Position numbers and translations under genes: made by a program. From Longimicrobiales bacterium (GTDB lineage: Bacteria; Gemmatimonadota; Gemmatimonadetes; Longimicrobiales; RSA9), in the NCBI GenBank assembly GCA_035715725.1, contig DASTKT010000043.1, forward strand, positions 1 to 24,456: a stretch of DNA of 24,456 bases. Direction: 5' to 3'. Positions 1 to 24,352 of the stretch are shown here, piece after piece. Every line of letters begins with the position of its first letter. Within the stretch, counting starts at the first letter, position 1. The notes beneath the pieces were generated by a model that had not been told where the DNA came from, did not search any database, and saw nothing but the letters and a program-made list of their open reading frames with translations.

Positions 1-89
1 CCGGCCGGCCCGGCGCCCCCCGCCCGCCTCAGGCGGATCAGCCGCGAAGGGGTGGGCGGAGGCGCGCGGGTGGGCCGGGACGAGAACGG

Positions 90-135
90 AAATCTTCACC
101 GCAGAGCACGGAGGGCACGGAGGAACACGGAGGAT
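90..135 (+). repeat. TTCACCGCAGAG anchor followed by three tandem CACGGAGG units (107-114, 116-123, 126-133): a member of the TTTTCACCGCAGAG/CRCRGAGG module family
   Basis: tcTTCACCGCAGAGCACGGAGGgCACGGAGGaaCACGGAGGat. Compare the plus strand at 22854-22884: TTTTCACCGCAGAGGCGCAGAGCACACGGAGAACGG. Confidence 0.55.
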
Positions 136-244
136 CACCGGGCACCGGAGACTCGCCGGCGTGACGCACCCTCTCTTGATGTCATTCTCCGGCGTACGCC
201 GGCGCCCGGCGTGGGGCCGGTGCGCTGCGGCCGTACCGCTGTGG

Positions 245-325
245 CCTCTGTGCCTCTCTGGTGTGCTTTTAATGGACGTGAGGCCGCGCGAACGTGAGGC
301 CGGACTCGCACTCCGCGCCGGCGGC
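245..325 (-). repeat. Copy of the GGCCTCACGT direct-repeat block (paired 12-mers at 275-286 and 292-303 on the plus strand as GACGTGAGGCC), followed on the minus strand by a degenerate CACACCAGAGAGGCACAGAGG tail. It lies 3' of the VOC gene.
   Basis: See the alignment under 20137-20230. Confidence 0.6.
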
Positions 326-351
326 ACTGCGCCCGGTCTCGACGTCCCGCG

Positions 352-7360: not shown

Positions 7361-7490
7361 TCCTCTGGCTCTTGCTCGCCCTCTTGCTCTTGCTTCTCGA
7401 GACTCGGCGCTCCCGGCTCGACAGGTTTGAGCCGTGAGGTTCGAGGATGCGAGGGGCAAGAGCAAGAGCATGAGCAAGAGCATGAGACGC
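7361..7490. repeat. Long imperfect inverted repeat (arms about 7368-7399 and 7449-7480) built from tandem CTCTTGCTC units. It is preceded by a 24-bp GC palindrome at 7323-7346.
   Basis: The left arm gctcttgctcgccctcttgctcttgcttctcg matches the reverse complement of cgaggggcaagagcaagagcatgagcaagagc at 27 of 32 positions. It lies 3' of the MerR gene in a 613-bp non-coding interval. Confidence 0.6.
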
Positions 7491-7534: not shown

Positions 7535-8257
7535 TCACCGCAGCGCCCGCAGCGCCCGCCCGATGTACTCCCACACCGCCGGATCGAACCCCGCCCGCTC
7601 CCGCACGGCCGGCTCGTTCCGGTACAGCTCCCGCACCCCCGCGGCCACGCCCGCGTCGCCGCCGGTGAACTCCTCGACCAGCCCCTTCCACCGGCGCGCG
7701 AGGGCGAGGACGGGCTCGCTCGTGGGGTCGGTCCCCTTCTCCATCTCCGCCTTCACCTCCGCGATCAGCACCGGCCACGCGGCCTCCACCTCCTTGATCC
7801 GCGCCGCGCCGACCCGCTCCCCCTGCTGGCGGATCCGCTCGAGCTGCTCCGCCGTGAAGTATTTCTCGTGCATCGCCATCTCCTCCATCGTCTCGAGGAA
7901 CTCCTCGGCGGACACGCTCCCGTCCGCCGTCAGCCGGGCCGCCATCCGCTCCAGCCGCCCGAGGAGCCGCGCCTTCAGCGCGATCTCCTCCCGCAGCCGC
8001 CCGACGTGCAGCCCGATCACCTCCCCCAGCGAGCCGCCCGGCCGGGCCAGGCACTCGCGGATCTCCTCCAGCGACAGCCCCAGCTCCCGCAACGACCGGA
8101 TCCGTTGCAGCCGCTCGATGTCCTCCGCCGCGTACAGCCGGTATCCCGCCGCCGTCCGCGCCGAGGGCGTCAAAAGCCCGATCTCGTCGTAATGGTGCAG
8201 CGTCCGCACGGTCAGCCCCGTCGCCTCCGCCAGCTCGCCGACCTTCCACACCCTCAT
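7535..8257 (-). CDS. MerR family transcriptional regulator with a TipAS-like C-terminal effector domain (TipAL-like)
   Basis: N-terminal MerR HTH (MRVWKVGELAEATGLTVRTLHHYDEIGLLTP...GYRLY). ATG 8257 is preceded by AAGGAGG with a 6-nt spacer. A promoter with 19-bp spacer lies upstream (next entry). Confidence 0.8.
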   Translation of the reverse strand: MRVWKVGELAEATGLTVRTLHHYDEIGLLTPSARTAAGYRLYAAEDIERLQRIRSLRELGLSLEEIRECLARPGGSLGEVIGLHVGRLREEIALKARLLGRLERMAARLTADGSVSAEEFLETMEEMAMHEKYFTAEQLERIRQQGERVGAARIKEVEAAWPVLIAEVKAEMEKGTDPTSEPVLALARRWKGLVEEFTGGDAGVAAGVRELYRNEPAVRERAGFDPAVWEYIGRALRALR

Positions 8258-8286: not shown

Positions 8287-8317
8287 ATGCTAAACCCCCA
8301 CGTAGCGTGAGGGTCAA
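8287..8317 (-). promoter_or_regulatory. MerR-type promoter: -35 TTGACC (rc at 8312-8317), 19-bp spacer holding the imperfect dyad ACCCTCACG-cta-CGTGGGGGT, and -10 TAGCAT (rc at 8287-8292). ATG is about 30 nt downstream.
   Basis: Read directly. The 19-bp spacer with a dyad centred between -35 and -10 is the hallmark architecture of MerR/TipA-family autoregulated promoters. Confidence 0.6.
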
Positions 8318-8476
8318 GGGGCATCAACACGCGATCGCCGCGAAGCCTCACGCTCGCGGGCGTCTCAGCGGTCCTTCTGTGTCGCACGGAGCCGCGGAGG
8401 GGTGGAGTCCATGTCATTCGGGGACGGGGCCGAACGGCCAGGCCGGCGTGATGGGAATCTGTACCGAATCACACAT

Positions 8477-8521
8477 GGAATGCGCCCGGTGGGATGCCTC
8501 CCACCGGGCGCTTCACATTCC
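8477..8521. repeat. REP-like palindromic hairpin, copy 1: gaatGCGCCCGGTGGGAtgccTCCCACCGGGCGCttcacattc
   Basis: Stem is perfect over 13 bp. The same core recurs at 20045-20080 and in degenerate form at 19326-19360. Confidence 0.7.
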
Positions 8522-8619
8522 CCGGAAACCATCTACTGCCCGGTACTCCTCCGCGGCTCCGCGCTCTCCGCGTGAGATGCCGTTCGCCGGCCCGGCCGGG
8601 GCCCATCCGGTGCCCGGAG

Positions 8620-8659
8620 CCCCGTGGCTCTCCGTGTGCCCCGTGGCTCCGTGTGACGC
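8620..8659 (-). repeat. Tandem direct repeat of about 19 bp (minus-strand reading CACACGGAG(A)GCCACGGGG, two copies) in the 3' region of the M20 peptidase gene
   Basis: On the plus strand, ccccgtggctctccgtgtg is followed by ccccgtggctccgtgtgac. The 15-mer GTCACACGGAGCCAC is identical to 20199-20213. Confidence 0.6.
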
Positions 8660-8711
8660 CTTCCGTTCCTCAGCCCTACCGGAGCGCCGGAGGACCGCCG
8701 GCATGAGCGAT

Positions 8712-10337
8712 TTACCGCGGGCTTCCCCCGTCCGCGCTGGTCTTCGTCAGCGTCGGGTACTTGATGCCGAGCTGCTGCAGGTAGTTGTCGTACTTCGTCT
8801 CGTCGAAGTAGAAGGGCTGCAGCTTGGGCTTGTACTCCTCCATGATCTTGCGGTTGAGCCAGGTGGCCGGCGGGTCGTCCTTGCCGATGAAGGGCGTGTA
8901 CTTCGTGTCCTTGGTCTGGACCTCCCGGAAGTACTTCCAGGCGTCGTCGAGCATCTTCGGGTTGAGGTAGTAGACCAGGGCGGTGCGGGCCATGACCTTT
9001 GCGCCGGCGGTGGCGCCCTTGTGGGCGATGGGCGTGGCCATGGAGATGGCGTTGGACCAGTTGTGCCCCGGCAGCCCCGGGATGTTGGACGGGAAGCGGA
9101 GCGTCACCGTGGGCACGACCCAGGAGACGTCGCCGATGTCGTCGGAGCCGCCGCTCTCGGGGCGGCGCGGCGGGCCGGAGAGGGAGTCGAGCTTCATGGC
9201 CAGGCCGGCCGTGTCGTTGCTGCTGACGAGCTTCTGCACGGCCTTGGCGAGCGCCTGGTCGTCGGCGGTCCAGGTGGGGAGGCCGACGGCCTGGATCTGC
9301 CGGTACATCAGCTCGGCGATCGGCCGGTTGAAGTGCCGCGGCCAGGCGGCGCCGAGGATGTGCTGCTTGACCTCGGTGTCGGTCATCTTCGCGGCGCCCT
9401 CGGCGATGCGCGTGCCGATGTCCCAGTTCTTCTTGATGTTCGGGTAGTCGAGCTCGCGGAAGTAGTACCAGACGGCGGCCTTGGACGGCACGACGTTCGG
9501 CTGGTCGCCGCCATCCGAGATGACGTAGTGGGAGCGCTGGTCGGGGCGCAGGTGCTCGCGGCGGAAGTTCCAGCCCACGTCCATGAGCTCGACGGCGTCG
9601 AGCGCGCTGCGGCCGCGCCAGGGCGCGCCGGCGCTGTGGGCGGACTCGCCGCTGAACAGGTACTCGACGGAGACGATTCCCGTCCCGCTGCCGGCGCCCC
9701 ACGAGACGCCCAGGTTGTCGCCGACGTGGGTGAAGAAGACCGCATCCACGTCCTTGAAGACGCCGTCGCGCACGAACCACTCCTTCGAGCCGAGCAGCTC
9801 CTCGGCGACGCCGGGCCAGAGCACGAGCGTCCCCGGGATCTTCTCGCGCTCCATGATCTTCTTGAGCGCGAGCGCCGCGGTGACGTTCACCGCCTGCCCC
9901 GAGTTGTGCCCCTCGCCGTGCCCCGGCGCGCCCTCCACGATCGGCTCGTGCCAGGCGACGCCGGGCTTCTGGCTCGCCTTCGGGATCCCGTCGATGTCGC
10001 TGCCGAACGCGATCACGGGCTTCCCCGACCCCCACTTCGCGACCCACGCCGTGGGGATCCCGGCCACGCCGGTCTGCACCTCGAAGCCGTTCTTGCGCAG
10101 GAGGTCCGTCACGTACTTCGACGTCTCGACCTCCTGGAAGCCGAGCTCCGAGAAGCTGAAGATCTTGTCGACCATCACCTGCGTGAGCTTCCGGTTCGCC
10201 TCCACCTCGGCCGTCACGTCCTGCAGCAGCTTGTTCTGCTTGCCGGACTGGGCGGACGCGGCGGTGGGGGCGAGGACGGCCGACGCGAGCGCGAGGACCG
10301 ATGCCAGCCGGAGCGTCGGCGATGCGGGTGTTCTCAT
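8712..10337 (-). CDS. Secreted M20-family metallopeptidase/amidohydrolase (AbgB-like). Start moved to the internal ATG at 10337, giving a signal peptide MRTPASPTLRLASVLALASAVLAPTAASAQ.
   Basis: ATG 10337 is preceded by AGGAGA. The translation carries M20 metal-binding-type motifs (GSDIDGIP, GHGEGHNSGQAV, WHEP) and is 541 aa. The upstream 79 codons of the track ORF are Arg/Pro-rich with no start support. Confidence 0.7.
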   Translation of the reverse strand: MRTPASPTLRLASVLALASAVLAPTAASAQSGKQNKLLQDVTAEVEANRKLTQVMVDKIFSFSELGFQEVETSKYVTDLLRKNGFEVQTGVAGIPTAWVAKWGSGKPVIAFGSDIDGIPKASQKPGVAWHEPIVEGAPGHGEGHNSGQAVNVTAALALKKIMEREKIPGTLVLWPGVAEELLGSKEWFVRDGVFKDVDAVFFTHVGDNLGVSWGAGSGTGIVSVEYLFSGESAHSAGAPWRGRSALDAVELMDVGWNFRREHLRPDQRSHYVISDGGDQPNVVPSKAAVWYYFRELDYPNIKKNWDIGTRIAEGAAKMTDTEVKQHILGAAWPRHFNRPIAELMYRQIQAVGLPTWTADDQALAKAVQKLVSSNDTAGLAMKLDSLSGPPRRPESGGSDDIGDVSWVVPTVTLRFPSNIPGLPGHNWSNAISMATPIAHKGATAGAKVMARTALVYYLNPKMLDDAWKYFREVQTKDTKYTPFIGKDDPPATWLNRKIMEEYKPKLQPFYFDETKYDNYLQQLGIKYPTLTKTSADGGSPR

Positions 10338-10613
10338 GGCGTCTCCTGAACGGGCGGGATGCGGCTCCCGGTCGGTTCCGCGGCGCCGCGGGATCGGCGC
10401 GGCTTCCTGGAGGGGCGCCCCTCGGCAGGCGGCCGGCCGCGCCGGCGGAATCGGTCTCGGGAGTGCGTCTCTGGAGTGATGCGGCACAATGTACGGCGGG
10501 AACGCGACGTCGCCAACGGCGGCGTCCCGGGGCGACGCACGCGCCCGCGAGCGCCCCGCGCTCGTCGCACCCACGAGCGCCCGGCGGTCGCTACACCCGC
10601 GAGTGCCGCGCCG

Positions 10614-16104: not shown

Positions 16105-16881
16105 ATGCACCCGTACCTCTACTGTCTGCTGCTGGGTTTCGCCGGCCTCGTCGCCATGGCGGTCATGGGCGCGTTCGCCCACGGCGGCGGCCACGACCAC
16201 GGCGCCGGCCATGACCATGGCGGCGGCCACGCGGGCGGCGCCGACGGCCACGGCGCCTTCGGCCACCACGCCGGTCACGCCGACTCCGGCGCCGCCGGCC
16301 ATGCCGACGCCCACGGGCACTTCGCCCCCGATGGCGCCCACGCCGCCGGCCACGGCCCCGCCGCCGGCCACCCCCACGCCGGCGAGCACGCGGCCCAACA
16401 CGACCACGGCGGCGGCGCCGTCCGCGGCGCGCTCGGCGGTGCGCTCGCCTGGCTCTCGCCGCGCGTCGCGTTCAGCGTGCTCGTCGGCGTCGGCGCGGTA
16501 GGCACCGCGCTCCGCCCGCTCCTCCCCGCGCCGGCCGTGCTCGCGCTGGCGCTCGTCGGCGGCGTCGCGTTCGAGCGGGTGCTGGTGGGGCCGCTCTGGA
16601 ACCTCGTGTTCCGCTTCGCGTCGCAGCCGGCGGCCACGCTGCAGGACGCGCTCTTCGAGCGGGCCGAGGCGGTGACCGCCTTCAACGCGGCGGGGGAAGG
16701 GATCGTCCGCGTGCTGCTCGGCGGACAGGTCCGGCAGGTCCTGGCGCAGCTCCGGCCGGAGGAGGTCGGCAGCGGCGTGCGCGTCCGCGCCGGCGACGGC
16801 GTCCGCGTCGAGGAGGTGGACGCCGCCCGCGGTCGCTTCGTGGTGTCGTACCTCGGCCGGCTTCCGGCCGAGACCGGGTGA
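16105..16881 (+). CDS. NfeD-like membrane protein with an unusual ~80-aa His/Gly-rich insert (about 25 His; motifs GHDHG, HAGH) between the first TM helix and further TM helices, and a C-terminal NfeD-type beta-barrel domain
   Basis: ATG 16105 is an internal Met of ORF 14722..16881, whose upstream part is antisense to the permease. The C-terminus (GEGIVRVLLGGQVRQVLAQL...GVRVRAGDGVRVEEVDAARGRFVVSY) resembles NfeD OB-fold tails. It sits immediately upstream of an SPFH/flotillin gene, the canonical NfeD-SPFH pairing. Confidence 0.6.
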   Translation: MHPYLYCLLLGFAGLVAMAVMGAFAHGGGHDHGAGHDHGGGHAGGADGHGAFGHHAGHADSGAAGHADAHGHFAPDGAHAAGHGPAAGHPHAGEHAAQHDHGGGAVRGALGGALAWLSPRVAFSVLVGVGAVGTALRPLLPAPAVLALALVGGVAFERVLVGPLWNLVFRFASQPAATLQDALFERAEAVTAFNAAGEGIVRVLLGGQVRQVLAQLRPEEVGSGVRVRAGDGVRVEEVDAARGRFVVSYLGRLPAETG

Positions 16882-19406: not shown

Positions 19407-19916
19407 ATGCTTGCGAACGACCCTCTGGACGGAGCCAGCACCGCAGAACTCGACGGCGCAGATGGAGTGACCCGCGTGGAGGCCGCCGTCCGGATCCACC
19501 TCCCGCGGGACGATGTCTACCAGGCCTGGCACGACCTCCAGCGGCTCCCCCGCCTGATCTCGCAGATCGAGGACGTGGAGGTCCTCCCCGACGGCGACTC
19601 GCGCTGGACCGTGCGCGAACCCGCCGGCCCCGCCCGCTGGCACGCCGAGACCCTCGCCGACGACCCCGGCCACCGCATCGCCTGGCGCACCGTCGGCGAC
19701 GCCGACGTCCGCCACCACGGCGAGGTCACGTTCCAGTGCGTCGGCAACGGCCGCACCACCGAGGTCCGCCTCGCCCTCGCCTGCGACCGCCCGCCCGGCG
19801 CGCACGGTCACGCCGCCGGCGGCCGCCTCGGCGTCCCGGCCGAGGACCAGGCGGCCGAATGGCTCGAGGACTTCAAGCGCGGCCTCGAGGCCGGGAGGCC
19901 GCAGCACCCACGCTGA
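19407..19916 (+). CDS. SRPBCC (polyketide cyclase/dehydrase-like, START/Bet v1 fold) family protein
   Basis: ATG 19407 is preceded by GGAAGGAAGGGA. The 169-aa product has the typical SRPBCC pattern (VTRVEAAVRIHLPRDDVYQAWHDLQRLPRL...HHGEVTFQ). It is an internal Met of ORF 19257..19916. Confidence 0.65.
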   Translation: MLANDPLDGASTAELDGADGVTRVEAAVRIHLPRDDVYQAWHDLQRLPRLISQIEDVEVLPDGDSRWTVREPAGPARWHAETLADDPGHRIAWRTVGDADVRHHGEVTFQCVGNGRTTEVRLALACDRPPGAHGHAAGGRLGVPAEDQAAEWLEDFKRGLEAGRPQHPR

Positions 19917-20044
19917 CCGCCCGGTTCGGCAGCGGCGGGTCACCCTCGGGGACCCGCTCCGGCCCCGCGGCGGCCGAACGTTCCGGGGAGCTCCCGCGGA
20001 GGCGGGAGAATGCCCGGGCGTTCGAGAGTTTCCGGTGAACGTGA

Positions 20045-20080
20045 ACGGCGCCCGGTGGGTTGCTTCCCACCGGGCGCCGT
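20045..20080. repeat. REP-like hairpin, copy 2: 15-bp perfect stem ACGGCGCCCGGTGGG / CCCACCGGGCGCCGT with loop TTGCTT. It lies between convergent genes and is a candidate bidirectional terminator.
   Basis: Seen directly. The core GCGCCCGGTGGG..CCCACCGGGCGC is identical to 8482-8511. Confidence 0.7.
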
Positions 20081-20136
20081 CGATTCTCCGAGGAGCGTCG
20101 ATCTCGTCTTTTCGGTGTTTCGAGCCCGCGCCCAGC

Positions 20137-20230
20137 GCCGCCGGCGCGGAGCCCGAGCCCGGCCTCACGTCCGCGGGCGGCCTCACGTCCGAAAGTGTCA
20201 CACGGAGCCACCGAGGGCACGGAAGAGCCG
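20137..20230 (+). repeat. Roughly 55-bp conserved block GCCGCCGGCGCGGAG..CGAG..CC followed by two direct repeats GGCCTCACGTCCG (20161-20173, 20180-20192) and a CACACGGAGCCAC tail. It is homologous to 245-325 in the opposite orientation.
   Basis: Minus strand of 245-325 reads gccgccggcgcggagtgcgagtccGGCCTCACGTTCGCGCGGCCTCACGTCC. Plus strand of 20137-20192 reads gccgccggcgcggagcccgagcccGGCCTCACGTCCGCGGGCGGCCTCACGTCC. Confidence 0.65.
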
Positions 20231-20336
20231 CGGAGGGCGGCCGCACCCTTCCGGCAGCACCCCGAGCCGCCGGCGTACGCCGGGAATGACATCGTAGGAA
20301 GGTGCGCTCCCCGGCGGTTCTCCAGTGCCCGGTGAC

Positions 20337-20417
20337 CCTCTGAGCCCTCTGCGCCTCTGCGGTGAAAAAGTCCGTTCCCGACCGCAGCCGCGCCCGCGGA
20401 CCGGGCCGAACGCGCCC
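20337..20417 (-). repeat. Copy A of the TTTTCACCGCAGAGG-CGCAGAGGG-CTCAGAGGG module (minus-strand reading). It abuts the stop codon (20418-20420) of the ring-cleaving dioxygenase gene.
   Basis: The plus strand 20347-20369 reads ctctgcgcctctgcggtgaaaaa. The flanking about 50 bp also align with copies at 23205-23283 and 22803-22883. Confidence 0.7.
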
Positions 20418-22239: not shown

Positions 22240-22743
22240 TCACCCCGCCGGCTCCGCCACCGCCCGCGTCGACCCCTCGGTCGACGATGCCGCGGGCGAC
22301 GCCGCCGCCCGCAGCCCCAGCTTCCGCAGCAGCGCGATCGCCGCCGCCTGCTCCGCCTCCGTCAGCCCCGACACCGCCTCGACGATCGCCGCGGCGTGCT
22401 CCGGGAAGATCCGCCCCATCAGCGCCTCCCCCGCCGGCGTCAGCGCCGCGTAGATCGCCCGCCGGTCCTCCGGGCACCGCCGCCGCTCCGCCAGTCCCTT
22501 CCGCTCCAGCCGGTCCACCAGGAACGTGATCCCGCCGCTCGACGCCAGGATCTTCCGCTTGATCTCCCCCAGCAGCAGCGGTCCCTTGTGGAACAGCGCC
22601 TCCAGCACCGCGAACTCGCCCTCGCTCAGGCCGTGTCGGCCGATGTCGCCGCGCGCGTGCTGCGCCACGGCGCCGTGCGCCCGGGCCAGCACGACCCACA
22701 GCTTGAGCGCGAGCTCCCGTTCCTTGTCGTCCCGTTCCGCCAT
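22240..22743 (-). CDS. MarR family transcriptional regulator, in an operon with the YceI gene
   Basis: Internal ATG 22743 (MAERDDKERELALKLWVVL...) gives a 167-aa protein with the MarR wHTH (SEGEFAVLEALFHKGPLLLGEIKRKILASSGGITFLVDRLERKGLAERR). GAGGAG lies upstream of the ATG. Confidence 0.75.
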   Translation of the reverse strand: MAERDDKERELALKLWVVLARAHGAVAQHARGDIGRHGLSEGEFAVLEALFHKGPLLLGEIKRKILASSGGITFLVDRLERKGLAERRRCPEDRRAIYAALTPAGEALMGRIFPEHAAAIVEAVSGLTEAEQAAAIALLRKLGLRAAASPAASSTEGSTRAVAEPAG

Positions 22744-22802: not shown

Positions 22803-23283
22803 CCGCGGCGGCGACGGGGCCCGGCGCAGCGGCGTCGGCCTGCGAACGACCCTTTTCACCGCAGAGGCGCAGAGCACACGGAGAACGGCGACGGAGCCGG
22901 GCGGCGCGGCTTCGTCGCATCCGAAAGATCCTCTTTGAGTTGGACCGGTGGTAAGCGGGGTACCGGTACGACTTCAGTGTTCGAGTTGGACCGGTGGACC
23001 GAGGTTCATCGGTCCACCTCCTCTTGGGAGGTGGACCGGCGTGATGCGGGTCACTGGTGCCGTGGCCGGACCGGAGATTTGCGGCTCACCGGTCCACTTC
23101 ATCATCCCTGCTTCCACGTCGGAGCCGGCGTAGCCCGGATCCAGACCCCAACAGGTGGTGCGTTCGCCCGCGAAGGCTGCTCCCCGCCGGCTCAGGCCGT
23201 TCTTCGTGTACTCTGCGCCTCTGCGGTGAAAACCGTCGTTCGCAGGCCGACGCCGCTGCGCGGAGGCCCGTCGCCGCTCGCCT
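22803..23283. repeat. Roughly 480-bp foldback element. The left arm (22803-22925) and right arm (23160-23283) are imperfect inverted repeats. The outer 80 bp are about 90% identical and inner identity decays. Each arm carries the TTTTCACCGCAGAGGCGCAGAG module. The central 235 bp is rich in ACCGGT-core palindromes.
   Basis: rc(22803-22883) reads ...gtgtgctctgcgcctctgcggtgaaaagggtcgttcgcaggccgacgccgctgcgccgggccccgtcgccgc. 23205-23281 reads gtgtactctgcgcctctgcggtgaaaaccgtcgttcgcaggccgacgccgctgcgcggaggcccgtcgccgc. The right arm ends exactly at the AKR stop codon (23282-23284). Confidence 0.7.
23005..23040. repeat. Perfect hairpin in the foldback centre (GGTCCACCTCC tcttg GGAGGTGGACC), flanked by further GGACCGGTGG / GTACCGGTAC palindromes (22940-23095)
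   Basis: Seen directly. GAGTTGGACCGGTGG occurs twice as a direct repeat (22936-22950, 22983-22997). Confidence 0.6.
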
Positions 23284-24184
23284 ACCGCGCGGCGTCCAGC
23301 AGCCGCATGTCCTCCTCGTCCAGCTCGATGCTCGCCGCCGCGAGGTTCTCCTCGAGGTGCGAGACGCGCGAGGTGCCGGGGATCGGCAGCATGACGGGCG
23401 AGCGGGCCAGGAGCCAGGCGAGCGCGATCTGCATGGCCGTGGCGTCGTGGCGGCGGGCGACGCGCTCGAGGCGCTCGCGGGCGGCGCGCTCCTCGGCCTC
23501 CTCGCCGAGAGAGCCGGCGCCGAGCGGGAACCAGGGGATGAACGCGATGCCGGCGTTCTCGGCGTACTCGAGGACCGCCTCCCACTCGCGGTCGAGGATG
23601 TTGTAGCGGTTCTGGACGGAGGCGATCGGCACGACGCGGCGGGCGCGCTCGATGTCGTCGACGCCGACCTCGGAGAGGCCGACGTGGCGGACGAGCCCCT
23701 CCCGGACGAACTCGGCGAGCGCGCCGAACTGCTCGTCGGCCGGGACCTCGCGGTCGATGCGGTGGAGCTGCCAGAGGTCGATGCGCTCGAGGCGGAGTCG
23801 GCGCAGGCTTCCCTCCAGGGCGCGGCGCAGGTACTCGGGCCGGCCGTTCTCGACCCAGCGGCCCGGGCCGGGGCGCTCGAAGCCGCCCTTCGTCGCGATG
23901 ACGAGGCCGTCGGGGTACGGCCGCAGCGCCTCCGCGATGAGGTCCTCGGAGACGTACGGGCCGTAGGAATCCGCGGTATCGATGAAGTCGACGCCGAGCT
24001 CGACGGCGCGGCGGAGCACGCGCTTCGCCTCGGCGATGTCGGCGGGCGGCCCGAAGATGCCGGGCCCGGTGATGCGCATGGCGCCGTAGCCCATGCGGTT
24101 GACGACGAGGTCGCCGCCGAGGGTGATCGTGCCGGCCTGCGCGGCGGGCGGTGCGCCGGGTGTCCGGATGCTGCTGGTGCTCAT
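23282..24184 (-). CDS. Aldo/keto reductase family oxidoreductase; start ATG 24184 preferred (AAGGA, 7-nt spacer). An alternative ATG at 24352 would add an (EA)n low-complexity extension encoded by the hexamer repeat.
   Basis: AKR N-terminal pattern (TITLGGDLVVNRMGYGAMRITG), the internal LRRLRLERIDLWQLHRID motif, and the C-terminal IPGTSRVSHLEENL. Confidence 0.8.
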   Translation of the reverse strand: MSTSSIRTPGAPPAAQAGTITLGGDLVVNRMGYGAMRITGPGIFGPPADIAEAKRVLRRAVELGVDFIDTADSYGPYVSEDLIAEALRPYPDGLVIATKGGFERPGPGRWVENGRPEYLRRALEGSLRRLRLERIDLWQLHRIDREVPADEQFGALAEFVREGLVRHVGLSEVGVDDIERARRVVPIASVQNRYNILDREWEAVLEYAENAGIAFIPWFPLGAGSLGEEAEERAARERLERVARRHDATAMQIALAWLLARSPVMLPIPGTSRVSHLEENLAAASIELDEEDMRLLDAAR

Positions 24185-24298
24185 CGGTCGATCCTTCTCG
24201 TCGGGAACAGCCGCCTCGCGGGCGGGGTCGCGGCCCGCGGCGCCACGGGTCGATGTCCAGCGGTTGCAGGATGGGTTCCACCCGGCCCGCGCCCCACC

Positions 24299-24352
24299 CG
24301 CCTCCGCCTCCGCCTCCGCGCCCGCCTCCGCGCCCGCCTCCGCCTCCGCCAT
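24299..24352. repeat. Imperfect hexamer microsatellite (CGCCTC/CGCGCC) of about 9 units, 115-170 bp upstream of the AKR start
   Basis: cgcctccgcctccgcctccgcgcccgcctccgcgcccgcctccgcctccgcc. Confidence 0.7.

Follow-up and report, generated by a model that had tools for sequence, protein, structure and literature searches.

Paired 12-mers in a Longimicrobiales contig belong to a non-coding, dispersed foldback repeat whose arms recur in other bacteria and in phages

MITEs such as the Correia/NEMIS, ERIC and RUP elements are recognized by their terminal inverted repeats, by a target-site duplication at their borders, by the occurrence of several dispersed copies with filled and empty orthologous sites, and by an autonomous partner, a transposase gene that has the same ends. 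Many MITEs have been reported in both phage and host sequence, and 97% of the catalogued MITE clusters are genus-specific (PMC11602168). REP/REPIN sequences are defined by a palindrome of 20-40 nt and a GTAG or CGTC tag (PMC3733652). They are also expected to flank a RAYT (Y1 HUH) gene. Paired repeats can also be read as binding sites for regulators. A site for a dimeric regulator is expected to show a fixed helical phase, a promoter location and conservation above background, and an operator for a TipA-class regulator of the MerR family is expected to show a CTCACG-N3-CGTGAG dyad in a 19-bp spacer that runs from TTGACC to the -10 element.

We analyzed a stretch of 24,456 nt from a Longimicrobiales bacterium (contig DASTKT010000043.1), referred to here as the window, in which a preliminary description had singled out a block with paired 12-mers. 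The G+C content of the window is 73%, and its proteins find their best matches among proteins of Longimicrobiales and Gemmatimonadota MAGs, the closest at 94%. An origin in Streptomyces, which the G+C content might suggest, is rejected by these matches, and the source is no actinomycete. The genes that bear on the analysis are as follows.

2307-1795 to 1311-352, minus strand: operon before copy A of the repeat, with genes for MarR (2307-1795), DoxX and glyoxalase (1311-352)
22743-22240 to 21488-20418, minus strand: paralogous operon before copy B, with genes for MarR (22743-22240), YceI (22221-21565) and glyoxalase (21488-20418)
7535-8257, minus strand: TipA-class MerR gene (MerR_1+TipAS)
8712-10574, minus strand: M20 peptidase gene
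ending at 19916, plus strand: SRPBCC/cyclase gene
23282-24352, minus strand: aldo-keto reductase gene

Elsewhere in the window, an ORF at approximately 16106-16880 (plus strand) has a His/Gly-rich N-terminal region (HGGGHDHGAGHDHGGGH...) that derives from repeats with an 18-nt period (families D1 and D6).

The paired 12-mers occur, as had been stated, at two distant loci in opposite orientation, on the plus strand in copy B and on the minus strand in copy A.

20161-20172, plus strand: first 12-mer of copy B, GGCCTCACGTCC
20179-20190, plus strand: second 12-mer of copy B, also GGCCTCACGTCC
301-290, minus strand: first 12-mer of copy A, GGCCTCACGTTC
285-274, minus strand: second 12-mer of copy A, GGCCTCACGTCC
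20120-20190, plus strand: module M1 of copy B, made up of the 41-nt M1a (TCGAG..GCCGCCGGCGCGGAG..), the first 12-mer, the spacer GCGGGC and the second 12-mer

Measured from start to start, the two 12-mers are 18 bp apart in copy B and 16 bp apart in copy A, not 17-19 bp as had been reported. No further match with 0-1 mismatch is found in the window beyond copies A and B, and the 9 matches with 2 mismatches are at the level expected by chance (7.9). The M1 block as a whole (20120-20190 versus 342-274) is 86% identical over 71 nt, with an E value of 8e-19. The preliminary description was also correct that an exact 15-mer, GTCACACGGAGCCAC, is shared with another locus, and only its positions need to be changed, from 20199-20213 and 8639-8658 to 20197-20211 (plus strand) and 8643-8657 (minus strand). 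The match at this 15-mer extends to 33 nt at 82% identity.

The block had been given a length of about 55 bp, but the homology between the two copies covers 259 nt. A blastn comparison aligns positions 20120-20378 (plus strand) in copy B with 342-83 (minus strand) in copy A at 73% identity over 294 aligned columns (E=5e-36), and the homology ends at both borders, where similarity drops to 31-45% in both flanks. Given that the indels between copies A and B are 1, 2, 3 and 10 nt long, no reading frame is kept and nothing in the repeat is coding. A small ORF starting from the conserved GATGTCATTC was considered and rejected, since the 2-nt indel between the 12-mers shifts the frame of one copy relative to the other. 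In every full copy the modules follow one order, namely M1, a degenerate left arm, a spacer, M3 and a canonical right arm ending in ..CTCTGCGGTGAA-N-CCGTTC.

20120-20378, plus strand: copy B, the full element, whose homology to copy A begins at 20120 and ends at 20378
20191-20240, plus strand: degenerate left arm of copy B, GAAAGTG-TCACACGGAG-CCACCGAGG-GCACGG.., in tandem units of 8-10 nt
20263-20337, plus strand: module M3 of copy B, with the palindrome CCGGCGTACGCCGG (20270-20283), GAATGACATC (20284-20293) and ..TGCCCGGTGA
20338-20378, plus strand: canonical right arm of copy B, CCCTCTGAG CCCTCTGCG CCTCTGCGGTGAAAAAGTCCGTTC, found by the nhmmer arm profile at E=3e-12
83-342, minus strand: copy A, with 12-mers at 301-290 and 285-274, a palindrome at 189-202 and a canonical arm core at 95-106

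The left arm of copy B aligns with the canonical arms, TCACCGCAGAGGCGCAGAGG, and has the exact 15-mer in common with the arm of a partial copy, D2, described below. Its right arm contains an exact TTCACCGCAGAG on the minus strand at 20355-20366. Within M3, TGCCCGGT is retained in all three full copies and in D2, and M3 is partly found in a further element, C. When the modules of copies A and B are compared one by one, the identities are as follows.

M1a: 83%
12-mer pair: 82%
left arm: 48%
M3 core: 85%
M3 rest: 74%
right arm: 64%
flanks: 31-45%

The 12-mer pair is conserved no more than its neighbors, at 82% versus 83% for M1a and 85% for the M3 core. The 12-mer block is real and non-random, but it is repeat-element sequence. 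We also compared M1 with the right flank, of which it might be an inverted copy in an extended palindrome such as that of element C; the signal is weak for copy B (p=0.01) and absent for copy A (p=0.94), whose flank is cut by the window edge. The idea that the 12-mers are duplicated arm termini was unsupported for copies A and B (p=0.2-0.6) and marginal for copy ED versus D1 (p=0.04).

Copies A and B no longer form strong hairpins, unlike the canonical members of the family. Both retain a canonical right arm only, their left arm being degenerate, and both fold no better than shuffled sequences (z of +0.4 and -0.8). We found no promoter or terminator consensus in copies A and B, and a consensus scan for intrinsic terminators, which consist of a GC-rich hairpin with a T-run after it, detected none at the elements. 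The T-run stands before the stem and the A-run after it (TTTTCACC...GGTGAAAA).

A repeat copy of the A/B type follows each of the two MarR-X-glyoxalase operons, and its orientation relative to the operon is opposite in the two cases. Copy A starts 10 nt past a stop codon, and copy B lies between convergent genes. Since the two operons are paralogous and their glyoxalase genes have stretches of DNA in common at 74-75% identity (D17 and D18), the two loci could be taken for a recent segmental duplication without constraint, a possibility that the preliminary description had allowed, in which copies A and B would mark the ends of a duplicated glyoxalase operon. We give this scenario next to no probability and regard it as excluded, because the flanks are unrelated, with homology stopping sharply at the element borders, and because the element is inverted relative to the upstream operons. 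A third copy in an unrelated context also argues against it, as does the distribution in relatives, where copy B is missing from the orthologous sites and copy A is present at one.

Rather than the two loci first described, five loci of the family lie in the 24 kb, namely A, B, ED, D2 and C. These copy counts apply within the 24-kb window, the source genome being otherwise outside the collections that were searched.

8340-8590, plus strand: copy ED, a third full but diverged copy, with AGCCTCACGCTC-GCGGGC-GTCTCAGCGGTC at 8344-8373, a left arm TCGCACGGAGCCGCGGAGGGG at 8382-8402, an internal hairpin at 8483-8510, an M3 tail with TGCCCGGT, and a right arm that ends in GTGAGATGCCGTTCG, with CCGTTC at 8580-8585
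8604-8670, plus strand: partial copy D2, with the M3 tail CATCCGGTGCCCGG, a right arm with CACGGAGCCAC units, and CCGTTC at 8663-8668
22808-23277, no strand assigned: element C, an intact foldback of another subfamily, with 82-nt inverted arms that are 91% complementary and a 306-nt interior

The 5' half of copy ED gives a local alignment score of 45, compared with 15.7 ± 2.4 in 1000 shuffles (p<0.001), and shuffle tests of its 3' half give p=0.007 and p<0.001. Its first 12-mer matches at 9/12 positions and its spacer at 6/6, and its second 12-mer is broken by two indels and matches at only about 5/12. The alignment of D2, which contains the exact 15-mer (8643-8657), with the 3' part of copy A scores 43 versus 17 ± 3 in shuffles. 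In element C, each arm has GAACG-N4-TTTTCACCGCAGAGGCGCAGAG, the DNA folds with z=-14, the arms are found by nhmmer at E=3e-12 and 5e-12, and the right half is similar to M3 and the right arm of copies A and B. An arm-profile search of the whole window returns four canonical arms (E of 3e-12 to 9e-9), and the arm core is matched with at most 2 mismatches at 9 places, compared with 2.0 expected. The terminal inverted repeats that characterize a MITE are thus present in element C, as its 82-nt arms, and in copy ED, whose arms pair with each other (foldback z=-5.0). The block always occurs together with the TTTTCACCGCAGAG and CRCRGAGG modules in a unit of about 260 nt, in agreement with the alternative offered in the preliminary description that all of these belong to the same REP-like family.

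Several other structured sequences lie near these copies. The interior of element C (22930-23110) holds at least five copies of GTGGACCGG / CCGGTCCAC, including GAGTTGGACCGGTGG twice, in a stretch of lower G+C content; these repeats could be an operator array or element cargo. Element C ends 65 nt upstream of the MarR start at 22743. A GC-rich hairpin, CGCCCGGTGGG-N6-CCCACCGGGCG, adjoins copy B at 20049-20076 and lies inside copy ED at 8483-8510, with similar flanks (52 nt at 77% identity), and it is also found in L108, a contig of a relative, at 881-908. Because that relative lacks the element, the hairpin is ancestral at the copy B site; its role could be that of a terminator, or it could be a REP-like unit of small size. 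Another foldback, at 7363-7399 / 7450-7486, pairs tandem hexamers (CTCTTG)n with (CAAGAG/CATGAG)n at 81% complementarity across 50 nt, and has the architecture of the main family with a different unit.

We compared the sites of copies A and B with the orthologous sites of relatives. In the relative at 90% identity (L108), the orthologous intergenic site has no copy B and consists of just 96 bp, in which the ancestral GC-rich hairpin is all that is retained. In the closest relative, whose contig for this site is L107, a flavodoxin-like (FMN_red) gene is present (L107 2209-2826). Given its absence from the orthologous sites of two relatives, copy B is a lineage-specific gain. A flavodoxin-like gene follows the glyoxalase gene in several relatives (L107, L139) and is missing from the window, where copy B fills the gap at 19917-20417. 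At the copy A site, the closest relative (L142, 94% protein identity) has the same element start, in a contig that ends 44 nt after the stop codon and inside the arm (sequence TGAcgcccgaccttcgtgggcGGCCCCACGTCCttgaaagcacacca). The second 12-mer matches there at 11/12 positions, the first is missing or matches at about 8/12 depending on the alignment, and the 45-nt left (M1a) part of the block is absent. No family arms were found in 62 kb from five other Longimicrobiales-type loci, and a more sensitive arm profile detected no arm in approximately 69 kb made up of those five loci together with L142 and L143. The repeat combines several dispersed copies with filled and empty orthologous sites, as MITEs do.

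Direct repeats that are exact or nearly so at two loci, both of which follow paralogous MarR-X-glyoxalase operons, would be expected if the 12-mers were tandem sites through which a nearby regulator, either the MarR proteins or the receiver/wHTH pair, co-regulates the two loci. M1 is moreover among the better-conserved modules of copies A and B. MarR-type regulators, however, bind palindromes, which counts against a MarR reading of direct repeats. The two-turn spacing that had suggested a response regulator or dimeric regulator is in fact 16 bp in one copy and 18 bp in the other, or about 1.6 turns, and it is broken by indels in copy ED, where the second 12-mer is degraded. None of the sites is in a promoter, their positions being downstream of stop codons or between convergent genes, and the orientation of the block relative to the operon is reversed between the two loci. 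In L142, the orthologous site lacks 45 nt of M1, and the first 12-mer is missing or matches at only about 8/12. We therefore find this reading unsupported, given the variable spacing, the location of copies A and B at the 3' ends of genes, and the lack of both extra conservation and a dyad, and we consider it extremely unlikely.

A search for the pair beyond the window points in the same direction. We searched 185,579 genomes, each standing for one species, for two copies of the 10-mer GGCCTCACGT placed 4-12 nt apart. The 106 loci obtained are unrelated short tandem repeats with many periods and from many taxa, some of them coding, and none of the 106 is an M1-like locus or has the element context. 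Among them, six Streptomyces contigs (L016, L021, L043, L061, L071 and L095) have an orthologous gene ending in ...MPALGLT-stop that is followed by a second GGCCTCACGT at a variable distance. These Streptomyces pairs reflect repeated local duplication around the stop codon and have nothing to do with the repeat.

The 12-mer does contain CCTCACGT, which is the half-site of ptipA (TTGCACCTCACGTCACGTGAGGAGGC) and is similar to that of skgA (TTGACCCTCACGCCACGTCAGACCTG) (PMC7762955), and this sequence occurs four times in the window, all within M1, compared with 0.83 expected. M1 might accordingly consist of TipA-class half-sites that the element spreads as decoy or auxiliary sites, tying its neighbors to a multidrug/thiopeptide response. 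The TipA-class gene in the window has a matching minus-strand promoter, TTGACCCTCACGCTACGTGGGGGTTT, at 8317-8292, and copy ED starts 27 nt upstream of the -35 element of this promoter. On its own account, the sequence at 8292-8317 (minus strand), upstream of the gene at 7535-8257, is a canonical TipA-class promoter/operator, and its first 13 nt are identical to a Caulobacter skgA probe sequence (PMC7762955). MerR-family dimers, however, need a dyad within a 19-bp promoter spacer, and of this dyad M1 has the left half-site only. Its repeats are direct, the expected partner half-site matches at only 1-4 of 7 bases, and there is no -35 or -10 element around M1; for these reasons we rate the reading as very unlikely. 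The enrichment must also be seen against the 7-mer CCTCACG, which is itself mildly enriched in the window (13 occurrences versus 6.0 ± 2.4), and the motif comparison was made post hoc.

We looked for the repeat outside this genome and find that it belongs to a foldback (MITE/REPIN-like) family, within which it forms a local subfamily that appears to be decaying. What defines the family is its inverted arms, which read TTCACCGCAGAG and then 2-4 units of CRCAGAG. When metagenomes were scanned for GAACG-N4-TYTTCACCGCAGAG, 30 loci were returned, of which about 14 are true members. These members are hairpins of 70-230 nt with CRCAGAG units every 8-9 nt and unrelated loops, and they fold with z of -6 to -18 relative to shuffles. 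The arms are thus carried by soil metagenome contigs, one of which is Verrucomicrobiota-like, as judged from an adjoining GlmM that is 91% identical to a protein of a Pedosphaera sp. MAG. No copies were found in the 21 kb examined of the cultured Pedosphaera parvula Ellin514. Searches of plasmid and GenBank phage collections gave no match except a 36-nt GC-rich chance one, and no relevant paper came up when the literature was searched with the sequences of the arms and unit arrays.

The arm core TTCACCGCAGAG-RCRCAGAG is also present in 56 IMG/VR viral contigs, often several times per contig. One of these, L147, has genes for a T7-like portal and for a capsid protein, and its hairpins, one of which is at 7860-7978, occupy narrow gaps between cistrons. 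Across the phage contigs, the hairpins stand 4-40 nt from the flanking co-directional genes. At an orthologous site just upstream of the capsid gene in three diverged T7-like phage contigs, the arms are 81-88% identical, compared with 30-38% for the loops and 36-62% for the flanks, and a fourth phage relative has a single arm at the same site. The capsid-upstream hairpins are located at 10688-10806 in L147, 5154-5299 in L181 and 3427-3565 in L198 and are followed by AAAGGAG-N7-ATG; in L179, at 2447, there is a single arm only, with ATG directly after it. Many solo arms in the viral contigs stand immediately upstream of start codons.

Copies outside this genome share only the arms with the repeat in the window, and M1 and M3 thus appear from these alignments to be private to the window's subfamily. 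The block had been proposed as the conserved core of its family; it is instead a peripheral, subfamily-specific module.

The positions of the copies raise the question of whether the whole repeat, including M1, acts as RNA and is kept for that function, whether as a 3'-UTR or intercistronic stabilizer, as a processing site or as a terminator. All copies are intergenic and most lie just past stop codons, the phage hairpins are close to co-directional genes, and their arms are kept at the capsid-upstream site while loops and flanks drift. The sense strand also folds better than its complement in 10 of 14 co-directional cases, although this difference is not significant. Against an RNA role, copies A and B have lost hairpin stability, the stems have no T-run after them, and M1 lies outside the foldback. 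There is also no match to an Rfam family: Rfam 15 gives none in the window at the gathering score, none in the region of copy B at E<=10, and none in nine metagenome loci with canonical hairpins. Finally, the arms are conserved in sequence and not in pairing alone, which suggests a partner at the protein or DNA level. We consider an RNA role for the whole repeat unlikely.

We think it probable that the 12-mer pair is a short tandem duplication, with a period of 16-18 bp, in module M1 of a non-coding, dispersed foldback repeat of about 260 nt. Copies of such an element may have spread through trans-mobilization, or copying, of the foldback, and a partner protein or other trans-acting factor would recognize the conserved bases of the arms. 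The short-unit arrays vary in number between copies, and replication slippage could account for the growth and shrinkage of both these arrays and the M1 pair. Copies A and B would then be old and decaying, with their hairpin potential largely lost, and M1 would be a hitch-hiking, subfamily-specific sequence whose own constraint is undetectable. Any effects on neighboring genes would presumably come about through structure at transcript 3' ends or between cistrons, rather than through a regulator bound to the 12-mers. We found no transposase bearing the arms in the window or at the examined loci, and the borders of copies A and B, of element C and of the metagenome copies show no direct repeat; the filled and half-filled phage sites are too diverged for a target-site duplication to be recognized. 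Since neither was found, mobility is inferred only from presence/absence differences and dispersed copies.

M1 and the M3 core are the best-conserved parts of copies A and B, at 82-86% versus 48-64% for the arms, and this conservation could reflect constraint rather than slower slippage-driven decay. More speculatively, the foldback family may be an undescribed, sequence-constrained module, consisting of TTCACCGCAGAG and 2-4 CRCAGAG units spaced 8-9 nt with free loops, that is common to Gemmatimonadota, Verrucomicrobiota-like bacteria and T7-like phages and is recognized by a conserved protein or RNA-processing activity. M1 would then be a private Longimicrobiales addition that happens to carry TipA-class half-sites. 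We hold this broader proposal to be doubtful.

The block is part of a repeat element, so that the REP-like alternative of the preliminary description was essentially right and the regulator reading is unsupported. For annotation, this means that the paired 12-mers, which make a tempting but false regulon motif, should be masked as repeat and not scored. The block has little interest on its own, and the wider value lies in the family, which is moderately interesting for its breadth and for the conservation of its arms.

Of the described systems, the TipA-class MerR operators (ptipA, mta and skgA) share with M1 the half-site CCTCACGT within the 12-mer, and the same window has a bona fide operator of this class at 8292-8317. 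They differ in that the M1 repeats are direct instead of inverted, that no promoter with a 19-bp spacer is present, and that copies A and B are found at the 3' ends of genes.

REP/REPIN sequences with RAYT and the TIR repeats of 'TIRtrons' (Di Nocera et al. 2013, PMC3733652) are, like the present family, extragenic and palindromic and lie mostly downstream of genes. They also form inverted doublets that give long hairpins, some of them within longer palindromes, and have a short conserved motif at the base of the hairpin, which is GAACG-N4-TTTTCACC here. The family arm, however, is not itself a palindrome of 20-40 nt; it is not self-complementary, carries GAACG / TTCACC, and has no GTAG/CGTC tag and no GGGGWSAS motif. 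No Y1_Tnp was found among the window proteins scanned, and no Y1/HUH transposase gene was seen adjoining any copy.

The intercistronic RNase III processing hairpins of T7-like phages resemble the family by position, since the foldbacks also lie in tight intercistronic gaps, including the one just upstream of the major capsid gene, and we take this likeness as an analogy. T7 RNase III sites have phage-specific sequences that are not known to recur in bacterial chromosomes, and in this respect they differ from the family.

The closest likeness in form is to the MITE group (Correia/NEMIS, ERIC and RUP). The repeat is 70-470 nt long, non-coding, intergenic and dispersed, with inverted terminal arms that form long hairpins; its presence or absence differs between related genomes, and it occurs in both phage and host sequence. 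It differs from this group in that no target-site duplication or cognate transposase was identified, in that its arms are built of tandem 8-9-nt units, and in that copies A and B have the extra module M1 outside the left arm. It differs further in the conservation of its arm sequence across at least two phyla and phages: almost the same arms are found in a Longimicrobiales chromosome (73% GC), in a Pedosphaera-like contig (56% GC) and in uncultivated T7-like phages. Given that catalogued MITE clusters are overwhelmingly genus-specific, this breadth is unusual. It suggests that the arms have spread horizontally on a very wide scale or else that their carriers have a recognition factor in common.
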